NCBI GenBank assembly: GCA_002789955.1 | Contig: PFUG01000420.1 | Coordinates: forward strand, 11,569-75,568 | Origin: Deltaproteobacteria bacterium CG_4_9_14_3_um_filter_63_12 | Lineage (GTDB): Bacteria > Myxococcota_A > Bradymonadia > UBA4248 > UM-FILTER-63-12 | Direction: 5' to 3' | Length of the DNA: 64,000 nucleotides | In this document: piece after piece, positions 8,122 to 48,606 of the stretch | How positions within the stretch are numbered: position 1 is the first letter of the stretch | How the letters are laid out: each line of letters opens with the position of its first letter | Notes under the pieces: model-generated | Database searches by the model: none | What the model saw: only the letters and a program-made list of their open reading frames with translations | What the model was told of the DNA's origin: nothing | Made by a program: the position numbers and the translations under genes

Positions 8122-8991
8122 ATGGAAGCGGTGCCTATTGGAATCATTGGTGGCAGTGGCTTGTACGACTTCGAAGGCTTGGAGGTCCTCGACGAGGTGT
8201 TCGTGGACACGCCTTATGGTCAGCCAAGTGACGCCATCCTCATCGCCAAATACGAAGGCCGCCGCGTCGCGTTTCTGCCCAGGCATGGCCGGGGACACCG
8301 CTACAACCCGACCAACGTTCCCTATCGCGCCAATCTGTGGGCCCTCAAAACGCTTGGTGTGTTCTGGTGCGTGACGGTGAGCGCGACAGGGAGCCTGCGG
8401 GAAGAGATCGTCCCCGGACACTTCGTGATTCCGGACCAGATCATCGATCGCACCTTCAAGCGCGCCAATACGTTTTTCGATGACATCGCTGTGCATGCAG
8501 GCTTCTCCTACCCCTTCGACCCAGTATTGCGTGCGGTGCTGATCAACGCCTGCAAGAGCACCCAAGACGTCGTCTTTCATGACGGCGGCACCTACGTCTG
8601 CATGGAGGGACCGCTCTTCTCGACCAAGGCCGAGAGCGCGCTGCATCGCTCGTGGGGCGCGTCGTTGATCGGCATGACCGCGGTGCCCGAAGCGAAGCTG
8701 GCCCGTGAGGCCGAGATGGCGTATGGGACCATCGCGCTCGCGACCGATTATGACGTGTGGAACGAAGACGATCACGTCAGCGTCGAGAGGGTCACCGAGA
8801 CGCTGCAGCGCAGCATCAAGCGAGTGCAGGACGTGCTCAAGACCGTGATCGCGACCGTCCCTTTGGGCGCGGAGGCGGAGAGCACCGCGAGCAAAGCCCT
8901 CGAGAACGCCATTATGACCGCTCCGAAGTATATCGATGACGAGATGTGGACGCGTTTGGAGTTGCTTATTTCCAAGTACGTCACTCGTTGA
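8122..8991 (+). CDS. mtnP: S-methyl-5'-thioadenosine phosphorylase
   Basis: 289 aa. N-terminal IGIIGGSGLYD, then PRHGRGHRYNPTNVPYRANLWALK and MTAVPEAKLAREAEMAY, the characteristic PNP/MTAP-family motifs. An AAGGAG RBS precedes the ATG. Confidence 0.85.
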   Translation: MEAVPIGIIGGSGLYDFEGLEVLDEVFVDTPYGQPSDAILIAKYEGRRVAFLPRHGRGHRYNPTNVPYRANLWALKTLGVFWCVTVSATGSLREEIVPGHFVIPDQIIDRTFKRANTFFDDIAVHAGFSYPFDPVLRAVLINACKSTQDVVFHDGGTYVCMEGPLFSTKAESALHRSWGASLIGMTAVPEAKLAREAEMAYGTIALATDYDVWNEDDHVSVERVTETLQRSIKRVQDVLKTVIATVPLGAEAESTASKALENAIMTAPKYIDDEMWTRLELLISKYVTR

Positions 8992-9079
8992 TCGGGGTCT
9001 TTGCGGCGACTTGTGTGGCCCGAATTCATCTGGTAGTCTCGCCGGCCACCGATGATGATACTCTTGTATTTTCAGCGTC

Positions 9080-11182
9080 TTGCGGACGGCAGTAGCACAA
9101 CCTGGGTTGGCAACGGTCTTGAGAGTCCCTATCCAAAGCGCTCCGCGCCACGGGCGTCAGCTTCCGCCATCGTTGTGGGTGTTGCTGCTCATCGGTTTGG
9201 TTTGGCAGGCACACGCTACAGCTCAGGAGGGTGCAGATGCGCCGCCGCTGTCCGAGCTGCTCTGGCTCGACCACTCAGCCTCCCTGCTCGGCACTGGGGT
9301 CAACGCCGTGGTCGTGGCCCCGGATGATCCCTTGCGACTCTACGCGGCCGGTCGTGGGTATGTCGCCGGAAGTAAAGACGGCGGCGCCACCTGGGGACCG
9401 CTGCTGTTGCTCGCCGGAAACGAGTTTCAGGACGAAGACCAGACCCTCATCGAGGTCCATGAAGACGACCTACAGACCTTTGAGGACACTGACGCGGAGG
9501 CCCAGTTCGAGTCGTTGAGGGAAGAGTATTTCGACGAATTCACACAGCGATACGGCGAGACTCTCGCCACTGAGCTCATGCTCGACATCGAGGACGACCT
9601 CAGAGATGAAGCGTACGCCGACTTGATTGACCTAGCCTCCGAGGCGGGCAACGAGCGCGACTATTTGGACCGGCTCAATCGCTTGCTGACCGCCGGGTTT
9701 TCCGAAGAGGAGGCGACCCGCTTGGCCTCGGATCCGCTGGCCGTCTGGTCGTTGGTGATCGAGGTCGACGCCCCCAAGATCGTGTACGCTGCGACTGGTC
9801 GCGGGCTCTATCGCTCGATCGACCGAGGGACGAGGTGGGAACGTCTGATCTCCGGGCTCGGACCAGATGGCGATGGGGTCTTGTCCGTGCGCGCCGCCGA
9901 CCAAGGCAAAACCATCCTCGCCGGCACAACCCGTGGGCTCCTCGTCAGCACCGACGCGGGACGCACCTGGAGCCGTTCTCTGGGAGCTGTCTCGAGCGAG
10001 CCCATTCGGGAGGTCATTCGAGTCGACGCCCGTGGCCGCTTCTTCGCCATGGGCTCACGCGGGATATTCAGGACCGACGACACGGGGACGACCTGGACAA
10101 CGCTGGTCCCGACGGGCTTCGATGTGGCGGATGCCACAGCAATGCTGTCGCCAGCGGGCTGGGGTGACTCACTCTTTGTCACGACCCCCAAAGGCGTCCA
10201 CCGCAGCGATGATGGCGGAGGGACTTGGGCAAAGCTCAGCGGGTCTGGGCTGGCCTCTTCGGGATTGCTGCAGGTGCTGCCAGTCGATGGCGTGGACAAG
10301 CTCATCGCCATCACCGAAGGCGACGTCTACGCCAGCACGGACGGTGGCGACAACTGGTTCACCGCGAGCGCCGGCTTAGTGGGCCAGGACCTGCGCTGGA
10401 TCGCCGTTGGCCCGACCGGCGAGCTGTGGCTCGGCTCTTCTTCCGGCCTGCTCAAGGGTCTTGCGGGTGAGGCTGCGGCGATTCAAGCAGAGAGTATCCG
10501 TCGCCTGAGAGAGATCTGGGCCGAAGAGCCCAGCATCGCACAGGTTGTTGGAGCCGGGTTGATCTATCACGGGCTCGAGGACACCCCTGTGGACGGTTGG
10601 CACGAGGCATTGTTCTTCTCGAAATTTGCCCCACAAGGCTGGGTCACGTTGGACTATCGACAACGACGCTACGACAACGAATACGTCACCTGGGTTTTTC
10701 CGAATCGGGACTCTGACCGGACCCTGGACACGATCTCGCGTCAACAGCGGCGAACGAACTACCAGAATCCGCAGACCAACGACGAGTTGCTGGGCCCACC
10801 CTCCAATCTGGAGTGGCAAGTGTTCGCGACCTGGGATCTCGGCCGAATGCTTTACGATCCGGCGTCGACCACCATCGAGAATGTCGGAGCCCAGCTCCGC
10901 AAGACCCGTCAAAAACTGGTCGGACGCATCGTTCGCCTGCTCATCAAGCGACGGGCACTGCAGCTGCGCGTCGTTTCGACGGGCGAGCTGGCCGTCGAAC
11001 GACACATCGAGTTTCAACTCGAGCTCGAGGAGATGACCGCTCTGTTGGATGGCCTCACGGGGGGCTATTACTCGAAGGCGGCGTCGAGCTACCGTGCCGA
11101 GGATCTACTTTTTAACGACGACGTGGAAGAGACCGCCAGGGAGAGCCTGGCGAGCATCGACACCGAAGGAGAGAACGAATGA
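9080..11182 (+). CDS. Secreted BNR/Asp-box repeat protein (Ycf48-like beta-propeller) with an acidic helical C-terminal region
   Basis: Signal-like N-terminus (LWVLLLIGLVWQAHATAQEG). Repeated S-x-D-x-G-x-T-W motifs (SKDGGATWGPL, SIDRGTRWERL, STDAGRTWSRS, TDDTGTTWTTL, SDDGGGTWAKL, STDGGDNWFTA). The start codon is uncertain (TTG at 9080). Confidence 0.5.
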   Translation: MRTAVAQPGLATVLRVPIQSAPRHGRQLPPSLWVLLLIGLVWQAHATAQEGADAPPLSELLWLDHSASLLGTGVNAVVVAPDDPLRLYAAGRGYVAGSKDGGATWGPLLLLAGNEFQDEDQTLIEVHEDDLQTFEDTDAEAQFESLREEYFDEFTQRYGETLATELMLDIEDDLRDEAYADLIDLASEAGNERDYLDRLNRLLTAGFSEEEATRLASDPLAVWSLVIEVDAPKIVYAATGRGLYRSIDRGTRWERLISGLGPDGDGVLSVRAADQGKTILAGTTRGLLVSTDAGRTWSRSLGAVSSEPIREVIRVDARGRFFAMGSRGIFRTDDTGTTWTTLVPTGFDVADATAMLSPAGWGDSLFVTTPKGVHRSDDGGGTWAKLSGSGLASSGLLQVLPVDGVDKLIAITEGDVYASTDGGDNWFTASAGLVGQDLRWIAVGPTGELWLGSSSGLLKGLAGEAAAIQAESIRRLREIWAEEPSIAQVVGAGLIYHGLEDTPVDGWHEALFFSKFAPQGWVTLDYRQRRYDNEYVTWVFPNRDSDRTLDTISRQQRRTNYQNPQTNDELLGPPSNLEWQVFATWDLGRMLYDPASTTIENVGAQLRKTRQKLVGRIVRLLIKRRALQLRVVSTGELAVERHIEFQLELEEMTALLDGLTGGYYSKAASSYRAEDLLFNDDVEETARESLASIDTEGENE

Positions 11183-17399: not shown

Positions 17400-18650
17400 T
17401 CAATTCCGGCTGATGTGATCCAGTCGAACCAAGGTGTGCTCGCCGCCGATCTCCTGGGTGACGACGTGTCTCGTCCCATCGGACCCGATCGCCAAGGCGG
17501 TTGCAATGACCCCAGGTTCGATGTCCAAGCTGCTGGTCTTCCAACCCGTTGGCGATCGGGTGGAGAGCAGAAGCCCCAATGTGGCGCCGTTGATGTGGCT
17601 GATCACGGCGCTGCCATCGGTGTCGAAAGCGATCGACGGGAACTGCCCAACGATGATCTTGCGCTCCCCCGTCTCGTCCCTTCGTCGCCCGTCGTCGATG
17701 AGCTCGATGAGGGGCACTCCATCGAGGCTGCGTGCGATCTTGAGTGTCCCCTCGCCACCGTCGAAGAAGGCCACGACAGGATCCCCTTTCGCATCTATGG
17801 CAATGTCGTTGTAGTGACCCACACGGGTGCCGGGGTTCTGGCTGGGAAGCGGGTCGCTGGCGCCGTCGATGACCCTGAGCACCCAGGAGCCTCCGCTCTT
17901 TCGAGCGAGTCGCAGCGTGCCGCAGTCGGCATCGTAGTAAGAGACGACGGGGGTTGCTCCCGAGACGACGAGGTGACTTTGGTAGCCAACCCCACGATTG
18001 ACGCGGCTCCTCTGTTCCTCGGGACAGGCCTCTTCCACGGGGATCTGGGAGGGTGGGTCGGCGCCTGTGTCTACGAAATCGAACCGCCAGATCTCTTGGC
18101 TGCGCAGCGCATAGCGCAAGACTTGATACGTTCGGTCTCGATAGGAGACGTGGGGTACGTCCTCCGAGTCGATGGTGAGGTCGAGGTCAACCCCAACATC
18201 TGCGGTGTCGTCGATGACCTCGGTTCGCCACTGCCCGCCTTCGTCCATGTAGGCGAACATCAGCCGAGCCAGTGACGAGTCACGGTAGGCGATGGCGGGC
18301 CGGCCATCGCTGTAGAGGTCGATGGCCGAGTAGAGTCCGACGTCGCGGTTCGAGTCGACGGTTTGGTAGTTCAGACGCCCATCCACGCGGTCCCAAACTC
18401 CGAGCACCAGGTCGCGGCCCTCGGTGTCGTAGGCCGAGACGTAGACCACGCCGTCCGCGTTCGTGACGATCGCGGGCCTCGATGAGATTGAGCGCGCCTT
18501 CACTCGGTTGGGCGCGCGGCATTGCTCCGAGGCGTCGTCGCAGCTCATTCCCCAAGGGCAGGGATCTTCCTTGCAGGTGCTCTGCGACGGATCGTTGGGG
18601 CAGCCCGTGAGGGTGGCTGCGCAGAGCGTGATGACGGCGACGAAAGCCAT
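17400..18650 (-). CDS. Lipoprotein with about 50-aa beta-propeller-like repeats (paralog of the C-terminal part of the 18806 gene)
   Basis: Internal ATG gives MAFVAVITLCAATLTGC (lipobox), then a small Cys-rich module (CKEDPCPWGMSCDDASEQC). Repeated units follow of the form hh.hAhD..G.PhhSYxD....xLxhA (VGLYSAIDLYSDGRPAIAYRDSSLARLMFAY; HYNDIAIDAKGDPVVAFFDGGEGTLKIAR). Confidence 0.45.
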   Translation of the reverse strand: MAFVAVITLCAATLTGCPNDPSQSTCKEDPCPWGMSCDDASEQCRAPNRVKARSISSRPAIVTNADGVVYVSAYDTEGRDLVLGVWDRVDGRLNYQTVDSNRDVGLYSAIDLYSDGRPAIAYRDSSLARLMFAYMDEGGQWRTEVIDDTADVGVDLDLTIDSEDVPHVSYRDRTYQVLRYALRSQEIWRFDFVDTGADPPSQIPVEEACPEEQRSRVNRGVGYQSHLVVSGATPVVSYYDADCGTLRLARKSGGSWVLRVIDGASDPLPSQNPGTRVGHYNDIAIDAKGDPVVAFFDGGEGTLKIARSLDGVPLIELIDDGRRRDETGERKIIVGQFPSIAFDTDGSAVISHINGATLGLLLSTRSPTGWKTSSLDIEPGVIATALAIGSDGTRHVVTQEIGGEHTLVRLDHISRN

Positions 18651-18805
18651 GAGGTGGAGCGCGCGACGCCCAAATTGGCACGTGCTCTGCCCTGTCCCGA
18701 GCTCTCGCCGAATAGCAGAGAGTCGCTTCGGGCCAGAGGGTTGCGCGCGCGAGACGCGCAACAGCTCTGGACGATGGCTGAGCCGGGCAGTGTGCATTGA
18801 GGCAA

Positions 18806-21800
18806 TCAGGGAATCGGAGTCACTTGGAAGATGGGCGAGAGGTTCGTCGGTGAGGCCTGTTGGTCGATGACGAAGTTGATCAGGAACGCCGTATCTCCGA
18901 CGATCACATGGTCTGCGTAGAAGCCGTAGGCTCCTGTGTAGCTGGTACCGCGCCCCTCGCCGGAGAGCACGGTCTGGACGAAGACGCCCGACGCGTCTTT
19001 CTGGGCGAGGACGAGCTGCAAGGTCGAAGAATCCTGGTAGGCGATCGTCGGCAACCCTTGATAGAGCAGGATTGAGGAGTCGTCCCCGATGAAGTTGATG
19101 GAAGGCCCAAAGGCATCGATTCGCGTCCCATCGTCCACGACCTCCTCGGAGCTCCCGTCGAGCGCCAAGTAACGAAGATCTTTGTGGCTCCAGTCCACGA
19201 AGCTGAGGTGTTCGACGTCACTGCCGTCGATCGCGATGGAGGGCCACAGCCCACTGTTTCCGTCGGCGCCAGACAAGACGACAGGAGCGTCGAACGCGCC
19301 GCCCGCGCTCTGTTTCGCGAAGCGGAGGTCGCCATTGGCGCTGTCGTAGTAGGCCAACGCCACGCGGCCGTCGCTGTAGCGCGCCTGTGCGCTGTGCAGA
19401 CCGACGCCGGGCTGCCAATCGACGAGGGCTGCGGGATCCACCACCACTGCGCAGGTCCCGGCGCCGAAGCAGCGCTCTTCGCTGGCGCAGCCAGACCCGC
19501 ACACGCTGTCCGCGACGGGTGCCTCACATTGGCTGTTGTCGAGTCGGCAGAAGGACCCTGTGGCGCATGGGGTGGCGCAAGGTCCAGTGACGTTGAGACG
19601 GTCTACTGTGACGACGGCGAAATCACTGCCGGAGGCTGGCGTCGCTGTCGACGCTTGAGCGTAGCGCAGCTCGCTGTAGACCAGGCCGTCGGCGGGATCG
19701 AGGACCTCTGCGACCATGTACGAGATCCCAGGAGCCCCAGTGGAATCGAGGCTCAGTGAGGTCCACAGGCCGCTGCGACCGGCGGCGTCCACAGTGGTGA
19801 AGGTCCACGAGTAGCTGCCCCCAGTGGCGACGCCGCGCGCATACATCAGGTCTTCGTTGTCGACGTCTTGGTAGGAGATGTGGAGCGTCCCGTCGGCGGC
19901 GACAGCGAGGTCGGTGTAGCGCCCTCTGTCCGCTCCCGGGGCTTTGATGCCGCCGCGAGGCCCGCTCGTCGACCCTTCGACGGGGGCACCGATAGGCAAC
20001 CCATCGATGAAGCTCCACGTCATCTGGCCGCTGGCGTCTTTGAGACCGAGCATGAGATCGCCGTAGGTGTCGTTGTAGGCGGAGGCCGCAACGACTCCAC
20101 CAACGTTCGCGCCGATGTTGGTGTACTGACCGTATCGTCCCATGCGCAACGGCGGCAGCTCGACACAGGTGCAGACGGGGTCGGTGATGTCGCAGGTCGT
20201 CGGGTCACCGCCGCCTGGGCTCTGCATCTCGATTCGGAACCCCGGCTCGCAGGTCAGCTCGCCGCACTGGTCAGGGATAGGCAGACAGCTGTTCTCCGCG
20301 TTGCAACAGAATTGCCCAGTGGGGCATCCGTCGGAGCAGGGAACGCCGCACGAGCAGATCCCTTCGAAGCAGAGGGCCATCTCGCCCGCACCGCAAGAGA
20401 GCGAGCAGTCCGAGGATTGCTCGCATGTCGCGGTGCGGCACTCTTTGAACCCATCGCCGTTCGTATCCTCGCACAGCTGCCCAGGCTGACAGTCTGCAGG
20501 GCCGTCACAGGCGGAGTCGGGGACGCACTGCTCGTCGATGCAGGTGTTGCCCTCCGAACAGCCTCCACAGGGAATGAACTCGCTCTTCGGCGAATCCTCA
20601 CAGGAGAACAGAACCACACCGCTGCACACCAGGGCGGCGAAGAGAGACCACCGACGGCGGCGAACGGCGAGCAAGCCCAGCGCGACGAGCAGCAGGGAGA
20701 GTCCGGTCGGCATCGACGAGGAGCGGCGCGTCGTGCTGCAAGAGCAGGCGCCATCGGTGTCGCTGGCGGCCTCCACGGCTCCCTCGACGGTCAGAGACTG
20801 CTTGAGCGTCGCGACGTTCCCGTTGCCATCGCGCACCTGCGCCTCGAGCCGCACGCGCGAGCCGCGGTGCGCCGAGAGCTCGAATAGGTTAGAACCTGTC
20901 CAGCTCGACCACTCGCCGCCGTTGACGCGGATGCGGTAGCTCAGCTCGGTGGCGGCGCTCGTCTGGTCGTAGGCCATCACGCGGATGGCCGCATCGTCGC
21001 GTTGGATGGCCTCGATGATGGGCGCACGCCAATCGATGGTCACGTCGAGGCTCTCCGGGCTGGGATCCAGGGTGTGGTAGTCGCCGATGACGCGGGAGCG
21101 CACCTGGAGCGTGTGGGGTCCGGGGAGTAGAAGGGCGGGATGTCGCAACGGCAGCCGCTCGACCGGAGAGAAGATCGACCAGAGACTGTCGTCGACGCGA
21201 ACCGAGTACTCGAGCGCCTGGCCAGGCAGGGGTGAGCGGCCCGAGAGCAGCAGGTTGACCGTCGGCACCAAGCCGCTGGGGCTGCCTGCGTGGGCCCAGT
21301 CGATGTTGCCGTTGGCGTCCAAGAAGTGGCTGGCGGGCATCTCGATGGAGTCGACCATCGCTTGCGTCTCGGCGGAACCGGCGAGTCCGCCTGGGGGCAC
21401 ATAGGCCAGGCCGGCGAAGAGGCCGATCATCGTGTTGTTTTCGATGCCCGTCATCTCCTCCACGTTGAGCTGGAACCCCATGAGGTCCGGCAGCTGGATG
21501 GGGTTGGAGATGCTGCCGGCGAGCTGGGGCAGGAATCCGGAGATGAGCGAAGGCAACAAACCAGCGATCAACGCCGGGTCCTCGGAGATCAGCTCAGAGT
21601 TGCGGACCTCGACGTTTTGCAAGGCGTTGCTCAGGTCTCCCAAAACCGGGATCAGCTCGTTCGACGGGGTCAAGGTGAGCCCAAGGGGAAGGTGAATGTC
21701 GCTGTTGATGGTCAGGATCCGCGCGTAGCGGTCGAAGATGAACGCGTAGAGGTCGATGTCGATGTTGTTGAGCTCGATGACCAGCAATGGCTCGGTGAGA

Positions 21801-23137
21801 ATGTACTCACCGGTGTTCGGGTCCTGCTCGACGACGTGCCGGCCAATAGAGACGGTCGGGGCCTGCTTCGGTGCGAACTTGATGAGCACCGGCGCGCTGC
21901 CATCGGTGAGGTTGGACAGACTCTGCATGAAGATGCCGAGGGTCCCGGTGGAGAGCTGGGGCACGGTCGCAGAGGTGATCTCGATGCAGAGCGCACCCGA
22001 GTTGTAGACCCCCCACAGGGTGTGCTCGAGGAAGCTCTCGCTGATCCCGACCGAGGCATCGAAGGGGAAGCCACCGGGCGAGGGCTCGGCCTCGAGGATG
22101 CTCGAGCGGGGAACGCGCGCCGCGCTGGGCGGGTTTTGGTGCGGGACGCAGGAGTCGCCTTCACTGGTCATGCCAGTCTGCACGCCGATCGAGAGGCCGT
22201 CGCCGACGACGTCGGCGTAGTTGCCAGTGAAGATCGAGTAGTAGACCCATCGGGGATCGGGCGGTCCATAGCCAGCCAGAAGCTCGGCGACGTCGAAGCG
22301 CCCCTCGGTCCCGAGCGCCTGCGCGACGCAGGTTCCGCTGGGCTCCATACAGAGGTTGGTGCCGGTGTCGCAGGTGGAGCCCGTCGGACAGCCAGCGTCA
22401 CAGGCCAAGCAGAGGAACCCGTCCATGGTCTCCTCGATGACGGGATCGAACTGGCCGACCAGCTGGTCTGTCAGAACACCTTTGAGCAAATCGGCGATCA
22501 AGCAGAGCGGATCGTAGATAGGACTGATGTCGAGCTGCAGGGAATCCATGTTGACGTCCGAGCCCAAATAGCGCACCGCGAGCCGCTCGTCGGCCGCCCC
22601 CACCCCCAGCTCGAGGTTCGCGGTGAGCGTCAGAACATCACCCGCGTTCAGGTAGGCGTGAACATCGCAGGTGAAGAGCAAGCCCTGCACAGGGATGTGC
22701 TCGTCGAACTGATCGATGTCGATGTTTACGGACAGCGCGTCGGGCGGCTGCGCTCCGGCCTGTCCCGAACCGTTGTCTACGGGGATGATGTTCACCGCAC
22801 CGATGCCCATATCGAGCTGGCACCCGCGGGTCCCGTCGTCACAGGTCACGCCCGAGTCGCAGACCGCCGGAGTCGAGGTCTGGGCCGGCAGACAGAAGCT
22901 CAACCCGGACTGCCCCATCTGAGCCAGGATCAACGGCACAATGGCCTGCTCCAGGGTCCCAACGCCCGACGGAGTCAATCGGACTTGCATCCCCTGATCG
23001 ACCAACAAGCCGTCCTTGGGATACGAGGCGACCTCTCCACATCCGCAACTGCTGGTCTGACCGCAGGCCGACGCGATGACGAGAAGTACACCGAGCGCGA
23101 GGACTCGGTCGATGAGGGTGCGAGTGGAACGGTTCAT
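18806..23137 (-). CDS. Giant surface lipoprotein ORF; probably two fused or readthrough genes (upstream part ends in a MYXO-CTERM-like tail, downstream part is a Cys-rich + beta-propeller-repeat lipoprotein)
   Basis: Start chosen at MNRSTRTLIDRVLALGVLLVIASACG (lipobox). About 830 aa downstream comes GACSCS...PTGLSLLLVALGLLAVRRRR (Cys motif + TM helix + Arg cluster). It is followed in frame by WSLFAALVCSGVVLFSC (a new lipoprotein signal), EGF-like Cys-rich modules, then the same 50-aa repeats as the 17400 gene. There is no stop codon between the two halves. Confidence 0.45.
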   Translation of the reverse strand: MNRSTRTLIDRVLALGVLLVIASACGQTSSCGCGEVASYPKDGLLVDQGMQVRLTPSGVGTLEQAIVPLILAQMGQSGLSFCLPAQTSTPAVCDSGVTCDDGTRGCQLDMGIGAVNIIPVDNGSGQAGAQPPDALSVNIDIDQFDEHIPVQGLLFTCDVHAYLNAGDVLTLTANLELGVGAADERLAVRYLGSDVNMDSLQLDISPIYDPLCLIADLLKGVLTDQLVGQFDPVIEETMDGFLCLACDAGCPTGSTCDTGTNLCMEPSGTCVAQALGTEGRFDVAELLAGYGPPDPRWVYYSIFTGNYADVVGDGLSIGVQTGMTSEGDSCVPHQNPPSAARVPRSSILEAEPSPGGFPFDASVGISESFLEHTLWGVYNSGALCIEITSATVPQLSTGTLGIFMQSLSNLTDGSAPVLIKFAPKQAPTVSIGRHVVEQDPNTGEYILTEPLLVIELNNIDIDLYAFIFDRYARILTINSDIHLPLGLTLTPSNELIPVLGDLSNALQNVEVRNSELISEDPALIAGLLPSLISGFLPQLAGSISNPIQLPDLMGFQLNVEEMTGIENNTMIGLFAGLAYVPPGGLAGSAETQAMVDSIEMPASHFLDANGNIDWAHAGSPSGLVPTVNLLLSGRSPLPGQALEYSVRVDDSLWSIFSPVERLPLRHPALLLPGPHTLQVRSRVIGDYHTLDPSPESLDVTIDWRAPIIEAIQRDDAAIRVMAYDQTSAATELSYRIRVNGGEWSSWTGSNLFELSAHRGSRVRLEAQVRDGNGNVATLKQSLTVEGAVEAASDTDGACSCSTTRRSSSMPTGLSLLLVALGLLAVRRRRWSLFAALVCSGVVLFSCEDSPKSEFIPCGGCSEGNTCIDEQCVPDSACDGPADCQPGQLCEDTNGDGFKECRTATCEQSSDCSLSCGAGEMALCFEGICSCGVPCSDGCPTGQFCCNAENSCLPIPDQCGELTCEPGFRIEMQSPGGGDPTTCDITDPVCTCVELPPLRMGRYGQYTNIGANVGGVVAASAYNDTYGDLMLGLKDASGQMTWSFIDGLPIGAPVEGSTSGPRGGIKAPGADRGRYTDLAVAADGTLHISYQDVDNEDLMYARGVATGGSYSWTFTTVDAAGRSGLWTSLSLDSTGAPGISYMVAEVLDPADGLVYSELRYAQASTATPASGSDFAVVTVDRLNVTGPCATPCATGSFCRLDNSQCEAPVADSVCGSGCASEERCFGAGTCAVVVDPAALVDWQPGVGLHSAQARYSDGRVALAYYDSANGDLRFAKQSAGGAFDAPVVLSGADGNSGLWPSIAIDGSDVEHLSFVDWSHKDLRYLALDGSSEEVVDDGTRIDAFGPSINFIGDDSSILLYQGLPTIAYQDSSTLQLVLAQKDASGVFVQTVLSGEGRGTSYTGAYGFYADHVIVGDTAFLINFVIDQQASPTNLSPIFQVTPIP

Positions 23138-23430
23138 TATCGACCTCACCAAGCAACAGCTTGGCATTCTACGAGGCAGCACGACGCCGCCGTTTGGTGT
23201 ACAGGACAAAAGGCCTTCGAACCACCGAAAGCCGCGTCGTCACCCCTTCTCGAGCTGAGTCCAGCGCAGTATCCGAGGCTGGGGATCGCGAGTCAAGCAG
23301 ACCCAGAATCCCCGCTGGGTTGCAGGACTCCAAGCCAGCCGCTTCGGGGCTTGTCCGGCGTCGGTCCGAAGCCACGCCACCCTCGCCACCGCCGCTCGCG
23401 TGGGAGATTTGGGCGACGCGCTCGTGGCTG

Positions 23431-24834
23431 TCACTTGGAGAAGCCGCTCCGAGAGTAATCTGTGCTGCCGACGAGCAACGGTTTGGTGAGATTTTCGCGT
23501 TGCGCCGCGAGGGCCTCGAAGGCCTTGGCCACGCGCAAATTGGTCTTGAGGATGTCGCGGATGGTGGACGACGGCAGGATCAAGACGTGCAGCTCTTCGC
23601 GAGCCATGACGGTTGCACGGCACTTCTCGCGACTGGCCATCGCGCGCACACCGAAGAACTGTCCAGCTGAGAGCTCAGCCACGGTCTCGGACTCGGCGAT
23701 GGCGCTGATCGACCCCTCGAGGAGGAGGTAGAGGCCCTCGACGGCGTCCCCTTCGCGGAGCACGACCTCGCCAGCATGAAGGTGTCTCGCCTTGAACTTG
23801 CGCGCCAACATCTCCCGTTCGCCGATTTCCAACGCACTGAACAACTGGCTGCTGGCCAGGAAGCTGCGCACCAGTCGCTTGCGGTAGAAGAGTTGGAGGC
23901 GCTCGTAGATGGTCGGATGCTCATGGCAGAGCTTGCTCAGGACTGACTTCGGTAGCACCAAGAGCTCTGACGCTGTTGTGGCGAACCACCGCACATCTTG
24001 GCTTTTTCCGGTCAGCAATTCGAATTCACCAAAGAACCCGCCGCGGGTGACCTCGCCGAGGTCGACGGGCTGCTCCCCCTCTTTGTCGAGCTCGGCCGCA
24101 ACATGGCCTTCGACGAGGATGAAGAGAGCGGGCTCCGAGAGCTGAGTCTGGAGATCGGCTTGGCGAATGGTCGCACCCGCCGGTACACGCCACCACTCGA
24201 GGCTCTTCAGCAGGTCGACGAACGGCGCCGGGGGCAAGACCGAGAAGAGTGGAATCTCCTTGCGGTCGATGTGTTCGAGGCTCAGACTCTGTGCGTCAGG
24301 CACGGCGATTCGCTCGACCGACAATCCGGGGGCTGCTGGCGAAGGCGGCGTTCCGTGCTCAGGCAACGCTTCCCACGCGCTGAGCGCGAGGTCGACCTCG
24401 AGATCCTCGTCGTCGCCGTCGAAGGTCAGCATCGTGAGCTCGATGGACTCGATCACTTGCGCTTGCTCGAGCCAGATCGCCGGCTCGTCGGAGAGATCGT
24501 CCAGCGTCCTCACGGGAACGGCGACGCGGTCTTGCTCTCCGTGCGCTGGGGCGCTGGCGTAGTGGCGAGTGAGAAAAAGGAGGATGTCCGTGCGGGTCGG
24601 ATCGAGGCTCAATACCTGTTTGCTGCAAGCGATGGCCTCCAAGAGCTCTCCCCTGGCGGCGAGCAACTTGGCGCTCAGCTCAAACTCATCGACGGCTTGG
24701 GCTTTGTAGCCCATTGCCGCGAGGTAGCGTGCGAGTTGCCGGCGCAACTGGACATTGGTGGGGTCGGCGGCCACGGCACGCTGGTAGATGCGAAGTGTCG
24801 CCCGAATCTGCTCACGTCCCATGGCGATCCTCAA
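23431..24834 (-). CDS. TPR-repeat protein with two tandem cyclic-nucleotide-binding domains
   Basis: N-terminal TPR helices (RIYQRAVAADPTNVQLRRQLARYLAAMGYKAQAVDEF). Two CAP/cNMP-binding-like beta-roll segments follow (GGFFGEFELLTGKSQDVRWFATTASELLVL; GQFFGVRAMASREKCRATVMAREELHVL). Confidence 0.65.
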   Translation of the reverse strand: MRIAMGREQIRATLRIYQRAVAADPTNVQLRRQLARYLAAMGYKAQAVDEFELSAKLLAARGELLEAIACSKQVLSLDPTRTDILLFLTRHYASAPAHGEQDRVAVPVRTLDDLSDEPAIWLEQAQVIESIELTMLTFDGDDEDLEVDLALSAWEALPEHGTPPSPAAPGLSVERIAVPDAQSLSLEHIDRKEIPLFSVLPPAPFVDLLKSLEWWRVPAGATIRQADLQTQLSEPALFILVEGHVAAELDKEGEQPVDLGEVTRGGFFGEFELLTGKSQDVRWFATTASELLVLPKSVLSKLCHEHPTIYERLQLFYRKRLVRSFLASSQLFSALEIGEREMLARKFKARHLHAGEVVLREGDAVEGLYLLLEGSISAIAESETVAELSAGQFFGVRAMASREKCRATVMAREELHVLILPSSTIRDILKTNLRVAKAFEALAAQRENLTKPLLVGSTDYSRSGFSK

Positions 24835-26144: not shown

Positions 26145-27851
26145 TTGAAGAACAAGGCGGTTATGGCTGGGATGGTGAGCCTGACCCTTCGACAACGAAC
26201 CTGGTTCTACCTGTTCTTGCTCCTTGGGCTCGTCGGTCTGCTCTACGGACCGATTGTTGGTCACCCATTCTCCCAGGCCGACGATCCGGCATACATCCTG
26301 CTCAATCCCGAGATCACGAACCCTGGTGCGGCCTCAGGCGCTGACCTCTTTTTTCAACCCCATATCGGCTACATCGTTCCCATCACCGGCCTCTTCGATG
26401 CAGCGCTGTACGCCGTGGGAGATGGGGAACCTTGGGTCTTTCATCTCGCATCTCTCGTGTTTTTTGGGCTGCTGGTGACGGCTCTGTTTAGTCTACTCCT
26501 CGAGTGGAGTGGGGAGCGGCCTGGGTTCGCGCTGTGCGCGGCCGCCTTGTTTGCTGCTCATCCCCTGGTGGTCGAGCCCATCGCTTGGGCCACGGGCCTC
26601 AAGGACCTCTTGATGGGTGGCTTCGTGTTGTGGGGCACCCTCGCCTTCGTCTTGGGGCTGAAACGTGGCTCGAAGCGATTGTTATGGGTGAGCGCAGCGT
26701 TGGGGGTCTGCGCTCTCTTGAGCAAACCCACTGGTGCGTTCATAGGGCTGGTCTGGGCCCTCTACGCGCTCTACAACGACCGTTCGAAGGCGCCACTCAA
26801 AAGCGCTTTGTGGGCGAGCGCGGTCCCTCTTTTGCTCGCCCTTCCGCTGATGGCGATGAGCTGGATGATCAATACCGAGGTTCTTCCGGGCGATCCGCAG
26901 TCCCTCGAGGGGACCTGGCAAGTCCCGCTGACGCTTGGGTACCAACTCGAACACTTCTTTTGGCCCGCTGAGCTCTTTCCGCGCTACCCAATCATCCGAG
27001 AGGCTGGGTTCGAGGATTTCCACACCTGGCTGGGCTGCTTGGCAATCGGGATCTTCTTCGGAGCTTTGTTTCGCCTCCGAAAACGGCCGAAGGTCGCGCT
27101 CGGTCTGGGGCTCGCGTTCTGCGTCTATCTTCCCGTGAGCGGCGTACTACCCTTTCCGAGGATGGTGGGGGACTCTTACCTCCTCGTTCCTTTGGCTGGA
27201 CTCTCAATGGCGCTGACTGCAGGGGTGACGAGTGCGTTAGAGGCCCCCCGTCGTGCGGCGTGGACGAAACGGCTATTGGCCGTCTGTCTAGTACTCGTCG
27301 CTGTCTTGTCCGTGCGTGCGGTTGACCAACGTGAGCGCTGGCGGTCGGCGGCGACCCTTTGGTATCCGGCGACGCAAGAATATGACAATTGGCCCTTGGC
27401 CTGGATGAGCCTTGCCGAGGGTTTGCGTTTTGAGGGAGAGGTGGATCGCGCGGTCGGAGCGTACGAGCAGCTCTTTGCGTACCGCTATGAACCATCGCTG
27501 CTCCATATGCTCGCCATCATGTTGGTTCGTGCTGGAGACTTAAGTGAAGCCGAATGCGTCTTTGCCGAGGACATCTTCTACGGCTCGGATCAGGCCCGAG
27601 CTCTCAGCAACCATGCGGCGCTCTTGATTTCCAACGAAGAGCACCTCATCGAGCATCTCGATGTCGCCAAGATGTCCCTCGACTGGTCTTTGCTGCAGGT
27701 CCAAAAGGGAATCGTCAAATGGCCGCCCGAGCGTGTCGAAGCGCTGATGCGGCGTCTTGCCACGGTCGGCCCGCCCAGCCAGGACTTGCCGGAGTGGCCG
27801 AAGCGAAACTGTCCGTCGCTGCAGGTCTCGCCAACCGACGCCTGCCCCTGA
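26145..27851 (+). CDS. TMTC-like (DUF1736-type) GT-C membrane glycosyltransferase with C-terminal TPR region
   Basis: Ten or more hydrophobic helices. A conserved first-loop DD motif (FSQADDPAYIL) and the DUF1736/TMTC signature AHPLVVEPIAWATGLKDLL. C-terminal soluble TPR-like helices (AEGLRFEGEVDRAVGAYEQLF...). Confidence 0.55.
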   Translation: MKNKAVMAGMVSLTLRQRTWFYLFLLLGLVGLLYGPIVGHPFSQADDPAYILLNPEITNPGAASGADLFFQPHIGYIVPITGLFDAALYAVGDGEPWVFHLASLVFFGLLVTALFSLLLEWSGERPGFALCAAALFAAHPLVVEPIAWATGLKDLLMGGFVLWGTLAFVLGLKRGSKRLLWVSAALGVCALLSKPTGAFIGLVWALYALYNDRSKAPLKSALWASAVPLLLALPLMAMSWMINTEVLPGDPQSLEGTWQVPLTLGYQLEHFFWPAELFPRYPIIREAGFEDFHTWLGCLAIGIFFGALFRLRKRPKVALGLGLAFCVYLPVSGVLPFPRMVGDSYLLVPLAGLSMALTAGVTSALEAPRRAAWTKRLLAVCLVLVAVLSVRAVDQRERWRSAATLWYPATQEYDNWPLAWMSLAEGLRFEGEVDRAVGAYEQLFAYRYEPSLLHMLAIMLVRAGDLSEAECVFAEDIFYGSDQARALSNHAALLISNEEHLIEHLDVAKMSLDWSLLQVQKGIVKWPPERVEALMRRLATVGPPSQDLPEWPKRNCPSLQVSPTDACP

Positions 27852-27926: not shown

Positions 27927-28379
27927 TTGGACTTCGACCGGACACTGCTCGGCTCCGACCACGAGGTCTCCGAGCGCGACCGCAGGGCGCTCGAATTCCT
28001 ACGTGCAAAGGCCGTCCTCGTCGTCGTCGCCACTGGCCGATCGTTGTCCTCCTTTCGGCGCTCCGTCGTGCAGGAATTGCCGATAGATTGGCCGGTCTTT
28101 TCCTCTGGAGCGGGCATCGCCCAGTGGCCTGCGTGTGAGGTTGTGCACGCCGTCCACCTCCCGTGTGGCGAGACCGCGTCGATCGGCGCGCATCTCGAGC
28201 ATCTCAATGCGCCGTATTGTGTCCATGACAAGATCCCGAACAACCATAGGTTCAGTCATCAGCTTGGCCGCGACAGCGCAGAGCGTACGAAGACCCCAAG
28301 GGCTCGCCCCTCCAATCCACGAACCGACCTCATGGACGTGCGTCGGACTTGGTCACATGTAGGCTCGCACAAGACCTGA
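27927..28379 (+). pseudogene. Truncated duplicate of the HAD/Cof-type phosphatase gene (5' fragment)
   Basis: Nucleotides 27932-28300 are about 93% identical to 30474-30842. The translation MDFDRTLLGSDHEVSERDRRALEFLRAKAVLVVVATGRS... matches the 30428 protein but has DFDRT instead of the catalytic DFDGT and lacks the C-terminal half (no GNDYNDLDML motif). Confidence 0.55.
27932..28300 (+). repeat. Segmental duplication, copy 1 (HAD phosphatase 5' region)
   Basis: Direct repeat of 30474-30842, aligned by eye at about 90-93% identity over roughly 370 bp. It is also visible as paralogous ORF-track peptides (27927 vs 30236, and 27554 vs 30067). Confidence 0.8.
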
Positions 28380-30048
28380 ACTCCCACGGTGGTGGCGGCT
28401 CGTGTTTTCCCCAGGCCGCAACCAGTTGGTCGAGCCGGGGTCCTAGGCGCGACGCCAAGAGGGGCTCGAGTTTCAGACGACGGGCCTCGACTTCGCTTCC
28501 CACCCACCACAGAGGCTCGATGCCATAGCCAGGATAGCGAGGCGCGCGGTCGATCTTCATGAGGTACAACACTCCTAGGTTGTACTTCGACACCGGAGGA
28601 TGCCCGCCGAAGTGGACGTCTTCGATCATGAGGCATTCGGCCTCGTCGAAATTGCCAGCCGACACCTGTGCGAACGCGAAGCTGTCGAGATAGGAGGGGA
28701 CGTAAGCCCGCGTAAATGTTTGCTCCCAGGCGCTCACCGAGCGTTCGAACTCGCCCGCGAATTGCAGACCTTCCGCCATCATCATCCACGGGTAGTGTTG
28801 CCACTGGGGGTCGTCGGAGGCGTCGATGGCTGGGTACCAAAGCGCCACAGCGGACGCCCAGCGCTGCGACTGATCGTGCCCGAGCCACCCCAGCACAGCC
28901 ACGAGGGCAAAGGCGACGAGGGCGAAGCCTTTTCTAAGTCGCGGCCAGGGGAGTTCCTTCAACCACACGGCAACCGCCACGAGAGATGTAGAGAGGGGCA
29001 AATAAAGGTAGCTGTCGGCGACCATCCGTGCGAAGGGCAGCAGATTGCTGACCGGCAGATAGCCGCAAACGGCGAGCGCAAGAGCGAACAAGACCTCGGC
29101 GCGCCTCCTAGCAAACCAAACCACGGCGACCACGAGAAGCAGTACACACATGCCGAAATATACGTGGGGGTCGGAGTAGCCGGCGAGTCGATTGACCGCG
29201 TAGCGTGGGAGGAGATCAAGTGGCCACAAGAGGTGCTGAGTCTGGTGGCCTAGAGCCATGAAGAAGTGCGCCCCTCCCGAACCAATCGCAGCGTCTGTGT
29301 CCAGCAACTCGCTGTGCATGTGGAAGCTGGCCGCGGTGATCACCAGGCTGACAAGTACCAAGAGCGTGATCGCCCGACAGAAGACTGGGGGAACGACTTC
29401 GCCGCGTCGGCGAACCTGCACCAAGTACCCGGCCCAGGCGAGGGGCACCAGAGCCCCCGTAGGCTTCGAGAGCACCGAGAGCAACGTGGCCGTCACCGCT
29501 AAAGTGAGCCAGACGCGAACGCTTTTCTCGTTGCTTTCCTGGCTGCAACGAAACGCCCTGAGGACCATGAGCGTGGCAGCCAACGCAAAGTTGGCCATCA
29601 GCAGGTCTTTCAGCCCTGTCGCCCACGCGAATGGCTCGACTGTAATGGGGTGAACGGCAAACAGGGACGCGGCGAGGAAGGCAGCGAGTGGCGAACAAGC
29701 AAGCCTGCGGGCCAAACTGTAGGTCAACGCTGCCATGAGCGCATGGAGCAACAAACCAACCAAGTGAAAGGGCCATGGCGCACCGCCGCCGAGCCAGAAG
29801 AGAGCCGCCTCGACGTTGCTGGTTACCGGAACGATGTAACCTATTCCGGGGGTCATGATGAGGTCCATGAGCGGCTGGCTCGTGGGCTTTGTGATCTGGG
29901 GGTTCTCGAGGATGAATCGTACGTCGTCCATTTTCGTGAACGGCTGGCTGATGACGTGTGTATGGAGGCCCATCACGAGGACGAACAGCGCGCTCCACGC
30001 TGCAAGATCGCGGCGTTTGTCGAGGTTGGGTGAGGAGGATGTCGGCAT
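28330..30048 (-). CDS. TMTC-like GT-C membrane glycosyltransferase with C-terminal TPR region (paralog of 26145-27851)
   Basis: Start at MPTSSSPNLDKRRD. FTKMDDVRFIL (DD loop), AVHPITVEPFAWATGLKDLLM (DUF1736 signature), multi-pass membrane topology and a C-terminal TPR-like domain. It is convergent with its paralog. Confidence 0.55.
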   Translation of the reverse strand: MPTSSSPNLDKRRDLAAWSALFVLVMGLHTHVISQPFTKMDDVRFILENPQITKPTSQPLMDLIMTPGIGYIVPVTSNVEAALFWLGGGAPWPFHLVGLLLHALMAALTYSLARRLACSPLAAFLAASLFAVHPITVEPFAWATGLKDLLMANFALAATLMVLRAFRCSQESNEKSVRVWLTLAVTATLLSVLSKPTGALVPLAWAGYLVQVRRRGEVVPPVFCRAITLLVLVSLVITAASFHMHSELLDTDAAIGSGGAHFFMALGHQTQHLLWPLDLLPRYAVNRLAGYSDPHVYFGMCVLLLVVAVVWFARRRAEVLFALALAVCGYLPVSNLLPFARMVADSYLYLPLSTSLVAVAVWLKELPWPRLRKGFALVAFALVAVLGWLGHDQSQRWASAVALWYPAIDASDDPQWQHYPWMMMAEGLQFAGEFERSVSAWEQTFTRAYVPSYLDSFAFAQVSAGNFDEAECLMIEDVHFGGHPPVSKYNLGVLYLMKIDRAPRYPGYGIEPLWWVGSEVEARRLKLEPLLASRLGPRLDQLVAAWGKHEPPPPWEFRSCASLHVTKSDARP

Positions 30049-30427
30049 GGAAGACTGACCCGTGCGATGTCTTGGGCGATGGTTCGCTTGAACACGAGCG
30101 CAGGCACCCAAACTCGCCTGAGTCGAGGTTGGTGCCAGGAGGCGAGCGAACCCCGACCGCGCGTCGGCAGCTGGCTCGATTGTGACAGCGTGGTGCCTCG
30201 TGCGAGGTCTGCTCGACGACTAGCGCGAATCGGCGTTGGTTGTCACGGTCACCCAGCAGTGGGGTGGCGCCCACGTCGAAGGGCTCTTAGAGTCGTGGCC
30301 AGTCGCTGCAACAGTTGCGGAGCGAGGGAGCCCGCTCAGCGACGAAAATCGCGGCTTGATTCGCCAGGCGATGCACAGGCTCACCGAACTTGCCGGGGAG
30401 GGTGCCCCACGGCCGGCAAGAAAAACA

Positions 30428-46980: not shown

Positions 46981-48396
46981 TTATTGGCATCCTGTTGAGA
47001 ACAAGGCGCCATTGACGCATGTCCCCGGGGACTGTTTGCGGGGATCCGCCACGACGTCAGTGATCAGAGAGGTGAACGGCACAAACGCCGTCCCAGTGAG
47101 GTCGGGGCTTCGCTGCAAAGATTGGTCTGAGGCGTCCGCATTCGAAGCCCACGTCGCGGTCCCGAGGGTGAAGGCCACCCCCTGTGCGTCGAAGATCGCG
47201 ACGGTGCTGCCGCCGTTGACGAGCCCGAGGGAGTCGACGACCACCAGCGCGTCGGCGAACTCAGGGCAACTCGGTGTTCCGCCACCAAAGAAAACCAAGG
47301 CTTGTTTCGGCCCAAGACACTGATCGGTGGTGAACGTGTACTTGCTTGCCCCCGCGACACCCAGCCGCACGCCTTTGAGGTTGACGTCCGACATCCCGAC
47401 GTTGACGACCTCGACGAATTCGTCCTTGGTCGACTCTTGCACGCCGTCGCAGTTGGCGTCGCCTCCGGCCTGTCCAGGTGTGGTGTTGCTGGCCATCGGA
47501 TCGAAAAGGACTTCATTGAGCACGAGGTCGTCGAGGGAGGGCGGATCGCAGGGTGGAGGGACGTCCACAGGCACATCGGTCACATCGGTCGCATCGGCGA
47601 CATCTGAGCTTACGTCGTCCCCGTCCACCGGGCTTGCGGGCATGCAGCCCTTGATGAGCTCCTCGCCGTTGATGCATTTGCCGGGGGAGGACCGAGTGGT
47701 TGAGACCTCGACGTGTTTCAGAAAGTCCCCAGTAAAGTCTGGGGCTCGCGTCCATGAGCTGTTTCCACTGCTCAAGGAAGGGACATTGACCACATCGAGC
47801 TGCGTGCCTGACAGGACCAAGCTGACCTGCGTACCGCTGTTGCTCAGAGAGAGTGACTTGGAGGAGACCAACGCTTGAGTGCCACCAAGGACGGTGCAGG
47901 CTGCTGTCCCACCAGAGTACAAAACCAACCCACGGGAAGGCTCCAAACACCCACTCAGCGTGTGCTTGGTCGTCCCATTGACCTGAACCTCGATTCCATC
48001 CAGGGACAAGACTCCGCTCGAGTTGTTGACGATCTCGATGAATTCATCCTGGAGATTGCTGGCGAGCCCATCGCAATTGGAATCGTCTGCGCCATTGAGC
48101 GGCGACGTGTGCACCTCATTGATGCGCAGTTCAGACTCCGTCACAGGCGGGACGCCCTGACAGTTCATGGCATCGACTCCATCAGGCAAATCGCCTGCTG
48201 CAGTGCCGTCAAATGCGGGGCGTTCTTCGCACTTGTTGAACACGCAGCGCATATTTATCGGACACTCCTCGTCCTCCGTGCACTGTCGTTGCGTGTCATC
48301 GCAACTCGTGAGCAACGTCGGCGTTGCGAGGAGGGCGAGAAGGAGCGAAAGGACGAGGGGGGATACCCTGTGCGCTTTGGTTTTGCCGTACTCTGT
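46981..48396 (-). CDS. Lipoprotein with two lamin-tail (LTD) domains (tandem paralog)
   Basis: ATG at 48396 with GAGGAG 6 nt upstream. MTEYGKTKAHRVSPLVLSLLLALLATPTLLTSC (lipobox). LRINEVHTSP...DEFIEIVN and LVLNEVLFDP...DEFVEVVN. Confidence 0.5.
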   Translation of the reverse strand, partial: TEYGKTKAHRVSPLVLSLLLALLATPTLLTSCDDTQRQCTEDEECPINMRCVFNKCEERPAFDGTAAGDLPDGVDAMNCQGVPPVTESELRINEVHTSPLNGADDSNCDGLASNLQDEFIEIVNNSSGVLSLDGIEVQVNGTTKHTLSGCLEPSRGLVLYSGGTAACTVLGGTQALVSSKSLSLSNSGTQVSLVLSGTQLDVVNVPSLSSGNSSWTRAPDFTGDFLKHVEVSTTRSSPGKCINGEELIKGCMPASPVDGDDVSSDVADATDVTDVPVDVPPPCDPPSLDDLVLNEVLFDPMASNTTPGQAGGDANCDGVQESTKDEFVEVVNVGMSDVNLKGVRLGVAGASKYTFTTDQCLGPKQALVFFGGGTPSCPEFADALVVVDSLGLVNGGSTVAIFDAQGVAFTLGTATWASNADASDQSLQRSPDLTGTAFVPFTSLITDVVADPRKQSPGTCVNGALFSTGCQ

Positions 48397-48606
48397 CATT
48401 TGGGTCTCCTCGAGCCCTGATTGCTTATGTCTTTCGCGAAACAAGTGTCGGCTTTGGTCGCGCCAACTTGCTCATCGGGTCACGAACAAAGGAGGTCTCA
48501 ATCCTCATGTTCGAGCCCAAACTGCGGGGCAGTGTAGCGGTGGGCACAACCCGGATCAATCTCCCCCTGAGAGGGAGCCGAGAACACCCCGAGGCCCCAA
48601 CTCCCT

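Follow-up and report, generated by a model that had tools for sequence, protein, structure and literature searches.

A MYXO-CTERM-type tail and a lipoprotein-type signal meet at one arginine cluster within a single protein of Myxococcota and Bradymonadales

MYXO-CTERM tails are cleaved by myxosortase, presumably after lipidation of their Cys, for which Lgt is the leading candidate enzyme; TraA and MXAN_4924 are the only proteins for which cleavage and surface display have been demonstrated (Guo, Haft and Wall, mBio 2025, PMC11980579). True MYXO-CTERM domains have been stated to sit near the C terminus (Haft preprint). The tags are also said to function when internal, and internal motifs, reported as rare, have been proposed to be functional (PMC11980579). 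With MXAN_5598 of Myxococcus xanthus, proposed to have arisen by the joining of two genes and to have its N-terminal part processed, an internal MYXO-CTERM is already known in kind, and in TraA/TraB of the same species the gene of the MYXO-CTERM receptor overlaps that of a signal-bearing partner (both PMC11980579). Here we describe a protein encoded in a 64,000-nucleotide stretch of the genome assembly of Deltaproteobacteria bacterium CG_4_9_14_3_um_filter_63_12 (contig PFUG01000420.1; this whole stretch is called the window below). A single minus-strand open reading frame (ORF) of 1,443 codons carries a MYXO-CTERM-type tail in its middle, followed directly by a lipoprotein-type signal and a second large region.

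The window protein resembles MXAN_5598 in that a MYXO-CTERM motif lies mid-ORF, preceded by an N-terminal surface module and followed by a different envelope module; here the motif separates two envelope modules that are found elsewhere as separate genes. The likeness is one of architecture, as the content of MXAN_5598 is an adhesin and an outer-membrane barrel/OmpA and that of the window protein is a predicted BPI-like module and a propeller. Whereas the MXAN_5598 type was called rare and no following lipoprotein signal was described for it (PMC11980579), at least 90 of the 96 fused proteins of the window family have a lipobox 11–43 residues further on, and fused and split states coexist in this family, unlike in the description of MXAN_5598. 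The split relatives, in which the MYXO-CTERM gene overlaps the next gene at ATGA, recall TraA/TraB; TraA and TraB, however, are separate ORFs of different protein families, whereas the window has one ORF.

Two sorting signals at an internal junction

Scored against TIGR03901 (the NCBIfam MYXO-CTERM model, with a curated cutoff of 20 bits), the whole protein reached 24.4 bits (E 2.8e-5) at residues 795–829, and excised fragments reached 33.4 bits (50 amino acids) to 33.9 bits. The alignment spans profile positions 1–33 of 34 and stops exactly at R829. The tail is laid out as a GACSC signature, a spacer, a helix (G810–V825) and RRRR. The helix before RRRR, GLSLLLVALGLLAV, is free of charged and Pro residues, in keeping with the transmembrane helix and Arg cluster of MYXO-CTERM domains, and AlphaFold2 (AF2) predicts a helix at residues 812–828. 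The models for PEP-CTERM, IPTL-CTERM, GlyGly-CTERM, LPXTG and GC_trans_RRR (TIGR03382) were also tried on the window tail; all scored under their cutoffs, and MYXO-CTERM was preferred.

An exhaustive HMMER search with residues 1–829, counted in clusters at the 50% identity level, returned 989 of them with E ≤ 1e-3, of which 450 reached E ≤ 1e-30. In a sample of 160 members, comprising the top matches and members from an earlier search, the junction was located with a small hidden Markov model: 96 proteins are fused, continuing for at least 250 residues past the Arg cluster (median 547), 41 end 0–16 residues past it, and the remaining 23 are fragments or do not match the junction in full. C800 of GACSC is invariant (13 of 13 and 96 of 96 aligned tails); MYXO-CTERM domains likewise have an invariant signature Cys, which often forms part of a CxC or GCGC pair. 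When the internal tails of the fused homologues were excised as 44-amino-acid pieces, 71 of the 96 matched TIGR03901 at E ≤ 1e-3, as against only 12 of the 41 genuinely C-terminal tails within the same family. Because the internal tails match the model more often than the terminal ones, they are not decayed relics. The window tail thus has every sequence feature of a MYXO-CTERM domain other than terminal position; we do not file it as a canonical member, but it most likely works like one. As a separate observation, one family member gave a weak match (E 0.0017) to NF058595, the NCBIfam 'lipo-invert putative C-terminal anchoring domain', a model whose name implies that a C-terminal anchor is viewed as a lipoprotein signal in reverse.

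The codon after R829 is TGG at 20648–20650 (W830), and the frame continues through SLFAALVCSGVVLFS to Cys846 at 20600–20602. This segment has the parts of a signal peptidase II (SPII) signal: RRRR as the n-region, WSLFAALVCSGVVLF as an h-region within the expected 7–22 residues, and the lipobox L-F-S-C846, in which F at position -2 is an uncommon residue when set against the general pattern [LVI][ASTVI..][GAS]C. It shares with ordinary Lgt/LspA lipoprotein precursors the Arg n-region, the uncharged h-region of ~15 residues and the lipobox, and differs from them in that it is not N-terminal, beginning at residue 830, and has the tail of another sorting signal for its n-region. In the split relatives the homologous segment is N-terminal.

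The fused homologues preserve these features. Cys occupies the position homologous to Cys846 in 96 of 96 proteins and is preceded by G, A or S in 95 (G 66, A 25, S 4), a composition resembling that of the proteins' own N-terminal lipoboxes. A rule that we designed, asking for a hydrophobic 9-mer and a lipobox pattern within 45 residues of the Arg cluster, is passed by 90 of the 96 junctions and by only 15 of 2,359 control windows from the same proteins (0.6%). The lipobox Cys lies a median of 19 residues past the Arg cluster (range 11–43), and the uncharged run ahead of it has a median length of 16 residues. The charged loop is no longer than 4 residues in 35 of the 96 homologues, so the minimal RRRR linker of the window protein is a common form and no oddity. 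All 96 proteins keep a constant order of Cys signature, spacer, uncharged helix, Arg cluster and uncharged stretch ending in (G/A/S)-Cys. Apart from its position within the protein, the internal signal has every sequence feature of a lipoprotein signal; it is likewise not filed as a canonical member, and it most likely works like one.

Both signals had been read in an earlier note on this DNA, made from its letters alone, and the profile match and the lipobox census bear out both readings. The same note pointed out that the junction is one base from a stop codon. This is true and uninformative, because every TGG is one change from TGA or TAG; moreover, the residue at the W830 position is unconserved among homologues (S, Q, G, N, H, A, L, W and others). 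Finally, the note held that uninterrupted orthologues lacking a MYXO-CTERM match would indicate a transmembrane hairpin rather than a sorting tail. The orthologues are uninterrupted, but 71 of the 96 excised tails still match, so that a sorting tail and a hairpin need not exclude each other. The junction appears to be both, a hairpin composed of two sorting signals.

Distribution of the fused and split forms

A very recent loss of a stop codon and a sequencing error were among the explanations first offered for this junction. In its general form, this account holds that a stop-codon loss or frameshift fused adjacent genes in this lineage, or that the fusion is an error of assembly or sequencing, and we reject it as very improbable. 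Split two-gene versions of the family do exist, in one clade the fused and split states differ by a net 1 nt in length, and TGG is one change from a stop codon. The open junction is nevertheless retained in independent assemblies: PJB38495.1 is identical to the window protein, OIP42561.1 ('Deltaproteobacteria bacterium CG2_30_63_29') differs by one residue, S744A, and a contig from JGI also keeps it, giving three assemblies of the same population in all. Relatives at 46–52% identity (P0020–22, together with L003, one of the related loci, which were retrieved using an alignment of the four closest sequences) are fused likewise, as are relatives at 27–35%; over all fused family members, identity to the window protein runs from 27 to 52%. 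A word-indexed search returned homologues of 1,340–1,412 amino acids that are 28–30% identical over 97–99% of the query, all with the identical internal arrangement. Single fused ORFs also occur in named genomes, namely the Myxococcota metagenome-assembled genome (MAG) BF4_93 (49% identical), an uncultured Bradymonadales bacterium, a Lujinxingia vulgaris MAG and a Myxococcales MAG.

Built by neighbour joining from 130 taxa, the tree of the N-terminal part requires at least 10 changes between fused and split states, against a mean of 34 after the states were shuffled. Its root reconstructs as fused, and the window protein falls within an all-fused clade of 53 taxa, which further argues against a recent event. 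The junction architecture is genuine, ancient and widespread in Myxococcota and Bradymonadales. One shortened protein, P0169 (891 amino acids; 90% cluster of P0023 and P0168), ends inside the second signal (…LSLIALSA), and its siblings have 1,514–1,516 amino acids. It may have arisen by frameshift or recent truncation, or be an artefact of the contig, and it was not counted as evidence.

The split relatives indicate how the two states are related. On two Polyangium-like contigs (L001 and L002), the TGA of the gene for the N-terminal part overlaps the ATG of the next gene as ATGA, with GAGGTG a few bases upstream. The second gene starts MKSRRALRALSGLAVAGVVGIFSGC, a stretch that can be aligned to the linker inside the fused relatives; its starts, MKSRRALRALSGLAVAGVVGIFSGCGDD or MISIGSRRALRAFTALAILATAGSFAGCGDD, are ordinary lipoprotein signals, and the propeller follows. 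Conversely, the linker of the fused protein P0009, …SSGRRALRVLTSISVLGAAGFFAGCGDD, aligns with the second-gene signals of split relatives. The split P0013 and the fused P0009 are 82% identical over the N-terminal part, and their linker DNA differs by a net 1 nt in length and by substitutions that remove the Shine–Dalgarno motif and the ATGA. Fused and split states thus interconvert easily, and both persist, which would be expected if both give the same mature products.

The large, separate clade of P0011 and P0047, whose members end at the MYXO-CTERM, was considered as a simple split of the window architecture and rejected, as the next gene encodes a protein of 175–179 amino acids and not a propeller (confirmed in L009). 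The gene after P0011 overlaps it by 4 nt and encodes a protein of 175 amino acids. In L009, the gene at 8539–9078 starts ~10 nt downstream of a member ending at its MYXO-CTERM, and its product has a type-I-like signal and a C-terminal Phe. This small protein resembles a small outer-membrane protein, and the arrangement recalls the TraA/TraB type.

A proposed hairpin precursor and the alternatives

The sequence data show the motifs with their order and conservation and the existence of both gene states, and modelling adds predicted folds; from these we infer a topology and two cleavages. In the reading that we favour and consider probable, the junction would be a membrane hairpin of two cleavable sorting signals, set back to back and sharing one cytoplasmic Arg cluster, and one precursor would give two lipid-anchored proteins. 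Both halves are rich in conserved Cys and both carry export-type signals, suggesting that both large parts are exported; the two hydrophobic segments would therefore form a hairpin with the Arg residues in the cytoplasm. The N-terminal lipoprotein signal would start export of the BPI-like double-TULIP module and two FN3-like domains. The MYXO-CTERM helix would then stop transfer, leaving R826–R829 in the cytoplasm, and W830–F844 would re-insert in the N-in/C-out orientation, exporting the Cys-rich propeller part, with the four Arg serving both signals. Myxosortase would most likely cut at the lipid-modified C800 of GACSC, and Lgt and LspA would modify and cut between S845 and C846 (L-F-S/C). 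The outcome would be two lipid-anchored proteins at 1:1 and a discarded hairpin peptide of ~45 residues, matching the products of the two ATGA-coupled genes of close relatives.

Internal hydrophobic signals are known to re-initiate translocation in the Bradyrhizobium japonicum FbcH cytochrome b-c1 precursor and in flavivirus polyproteins, where cutting yields a pair of membrane-associated proteins at constant stoichiometry. Those precursors are cut by type I signal peptidase, whereas the cuts proposed here would be made by a CPBP-type myxosortase and by LspA, each beside a lipid-modified Cys. More broadly, the family may represent a 'polyprotein' strategy of Myxococcota, in which a MYXO-CTERM and a lipoprotein signal in mirror orientation share an Arg cluster, myxosortase and LspA cut beside two lipidated Cys, and a doubly anchored BPI-like lipid-binding protein is made at 1:1 with a propeller partner; we regard the case for and against this wider proposal as evenly balanced.

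Several points weigh against the proposed processing. Cleavage at either site is deduced from sequence for every family member. The tail is not near the C terminus, with 614 residues following R829 (and 597 following Cys846). The lipobox rule is our own, and the remaining 6 of the 96 junctions were judged lipobox-like by eye. The data are mostly metagenome assemblies, in which 1-nt indels could misassign individual fused or split calls. In the literature searched, we found no precedent for LspA or Lgt acting on a lipobox 846 residues into a protein, and a literature search on internal lipoboxes or LspA-processed polyproteins returned nothing usable. None of the ten window proteins scanned is a myxosortase, the source genome not having been searched for one. 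As for the expected host, a member of Myxococcota or Bradymonadales that encodes a myxosortase (MrtX or MrtP), the relatives come from Myxococcota, Bradymonadales and Lujinxingia MAGs, and the source bears the label 'Deltaproteobacteria bacterium CG2_30_63_29'.

The principal rival is a permanent two-helix hairpin that is never cleaved and leaves one 150-kDa chain in the inner membrane with both large domains in the periplasm. Its topology is coherent, as Arg lies inside and Cys-rich domains flank the hairpin, and this reading would accommodate a tail that departs from the MYXO-CTERM definition in being non-terminal. Such a protein, however, would have no need for an invariant Cys before the first helix or a (G/A/S)-Cys after the second, which 95–96 of the 96 homologues possess. 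The uncharged run before the lipobox Cys is also short and within the signal-peptide range, and in close relatives each half is a protein in its own right with an ordinary signal. We therefore consider an uncleaved hairpin unlikely. Of the explanations in the earlier note, the genuine two-helix hairpin joining two extracellular regions is upheld and refined by our proposal, as it fits the biosynthetic topology.

Two starts on one mRNA could instead supply the C-terminal part, also or mainly, by internal initiation at TTG (L821) or ATG (M808), with the fusion protein a minor product. Both codons are in frame, and initiation at L821 would yield MLAVRRRRWSLFAALVCSGVVLFSC, a textbook lipoprotein signal. 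Split relatives do use coupled re-initiation, but they have GAGGTG, whereas no Shine–Dalgarno-like motif lies upstream of the L821 or M808 codon in the window, where a search for any internal start with such a motif came back empty. The fused homologues share no conserved in-frame Met before the second signal, and ribosomes translating the long ORF would occlude such sites. We judge this mechanism improbable, more so than the uncleaved hairpin, and retain the hairpin of two cleavable signals as the preferred reading.

Domains, neighbouring genes and significance

The features of the fused gene and of its two paralogous neighbours are collected in Table 1. In ORF calling, the 1,443-amino-acid frame can be extended upstream to a TTG at 23209; the public annotations OIP42561.1 and PJB38495.1 both adopt the 1,443-amino-acid form. 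The N terminus, MNRSTRTLIDRVLALGVLLVIASAC, itself reads as a lipoprotein-type signal, and an N-terminal lipobox pattern is present in 90 of the 96 fused homologues.

Table 1. Features of the fused gene and its paralogous neighbours, in window coordinates
Feature	Coordinates	Strand	Basis or remark
Fused ORF, 1443 aa + stop	18806..23137	minus	ATG at 23137, stop codon 18806-18808
N-terminal lipoprotein-type signal peptide, M1-C25, MNRSTRTLIDRVLALGVLLVIASA then C	23063..23137	minus	Read from sequence
BPI/CETP-like double-TULIP module, ~residues 45-580	21398..23005	minus	Predicted fold
Two FN3/Ig-like beta-sandwich domains, ~residues 590-785	20783..21370	minus	Predicted fold
Internal MYXO-CTERM motif, residues 795-829, DGACSCSTTRRSSSMPTGLSLLLVALGLLAVRRRR	20651..20755	minus	TIGR03901 match
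Arg cluster, R826-R829	20651..20662	minus	Sequence; putative MYXO-CTERM cytoplasmic anchor and n-region of the next signal
Internal lipoprotein-type signal, h-region W830-F844, lipobox L-F-S-C, Cys846	20600..20650	minus	Sequence, homologue alignment
Predicted tryptic peptide within residues 801-845, WSLFAALVCSGVVLFSCEDSPK			
Cys-rich region, small disulfide-type modules, ~residues 847-1000	20138..20599	minus	Conserved Cys, AF2 short hairpins
Beta-propeller, ~residues 1000-1443	18809..20137	minus	AF2 model, Foldseek
Paralogous propeller lipoprotein, 465-aa ORF	17400..18797	minus	BLASTP E 2e-13 to C-terminal part
Paralogous BPI-like lipoprotein, 542 aa	15731..17359	minus	hhalign 98.2% probability, E 3.8e-14

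A Pfam scan of the whole fused protein found no family at E ≤ 1, LBP_BPI_CETP included; the C-terminal part gave only a sub-threshold BNR_4 match and the N-terminal part nothing. The N-terminal part models as a BPI/CETP-like double-TULIP module, with two tandem helix-wrapped beta-barrels in a boomerang shape, followed by two FN3-like domains. The AF2 model of the C-terminal part (pLDDT 78) has a Cys-rich region and then a beta-propeller, for which Foldseek ranks the Photorhabdus PLL/PHL propeller lectins first in the PDB (E 9e-13, target-normalised TM score 0.64, ~10% identity). About 24 Cys are invariant between C846 and C991 among the closest homologues. This Cys-rich region had been labelled EGF-like at first sight, a label that the Pfam scan does not bear out, as it gave no EGF match; the propeller repeats that the C-terminal part was said to share with the neighbouring gene were recovered by BLASTP (Table 1). 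Every family member whose source name was checked bears the label 'hypothetical protein'.

The two neighbours downstream of the fused gene are counterparts of its two halves. The 542-amino-acid lipoprotein, which had no Pfam or NCBIfam match, aligned in hhalign over 468 columns to residues 12–562 of the N-terminal part. A homologue of the propeller paralogue adjoins the fused gene in L003, L004 and L007 and lies within ~3.5 kb upstream of it in L005. Homologues of the 542-amino-acid gene were found by tblastn in L003 and L005, and a 500-amino-acid ORF of L004 (15666–17168), included in the alignment by position, aligns at 21% identity. BPI-like and propeller modules thus occur twice each in the locus, with one pair fused, which points to a physical partnership of the two kinds of module. 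The ORF at 17400–18797 begins 8 nt past the stop of the fused gene and has a lipoprotein signal, MAFVAVITLCAATLTGC, ~48 residues in; either its true start is internal or it has an unusual N-terminal extension.

A BPI-like double-TULIP protein with an operon-encoded beta-rich partner has been described in the predator Bdellovibrio bacteriovorus as TipA/TipB (bioRxiv 10.1101/2025.09.09.675085). The TipA/TipB partner is a small beta-sandwich, not a propeller, and the two are separate genes with no MYXO-CTERM; on the basis of predicted fold, we treat the relation as an analogy.

In L004, L005, L006 and L008, a conserved ORF of 462–475 amino acids lies directly upstream of the fused gene, starting MQRLF(E/D)AF..GKELYLVGGAVRD in three relatives, with the motif ~15 residues into the listed ORF in L004. 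Its product resembles enzymes of the CCA-adding or poly(A)-polymerase type. The window has a different upstream gene, one encoding TPR and two cNMP-binding domains (23431–24834). Further away, 26145–27851 (plus strand) and 28330–30111 (minus strand) encode convergent membrane proteins of ~570–590 amino acids with one weak PMT_2 match; their C-terminal ends are alike (…NCPSLQVSPTDACP and …SCASLHVTKSDARP), and the pair are probably glycosyltransferase-like paralogues. Three more large proteins, candidate secreted proteins or lipoproteins, are encoded at 9080–11182 (plus), 50082–52889 (minus) and 46981–48444 (minus); Sortilin-Vps10/BNR propeller repeats occur in two of them and lamin-tail (LTD) domains in one, and none of the three carries a MYXO-CTERM tail.

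Compared with MXAN_5598, what is new here is a very large and different family in which the fused state is the majority among the members examined, the direct pairing of a MYXO-CTERM with a lipoprotein signal through a shared Arg cluster, direct evidence that fused and ATGA-coupled states interchange, and the BPI-like and propeller content. C-terminal tags are defined as terminal and lipoprotein signals as N-terminal, and here both lie mid-protein; annotation pipelines limited to terminal MYXO-CTERM tags or N-terminal lipoboxes will miss both signals. If both signals are processed, the family would offer a clean bacterial case of a precursor giving two lipid-anchored proteins, and the interchange of fused and ATGA-coupled forms would be explained. 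Guo, Haft and Wall raised the question of which enzyme lipidates the MYXO-CTERM Cys, and whether it is Lgt. If our proposal is true, the junction would be a natural substrate for asking whether Lgt lipidates both Cys, and would test the idea of MYXO-CTERM as an inverted lipoprotein signal. The predicted BPI-like double-TULIP module and its propeller partner, duplicated in this locus, may also bear on lipid handling by predatory bacteria.

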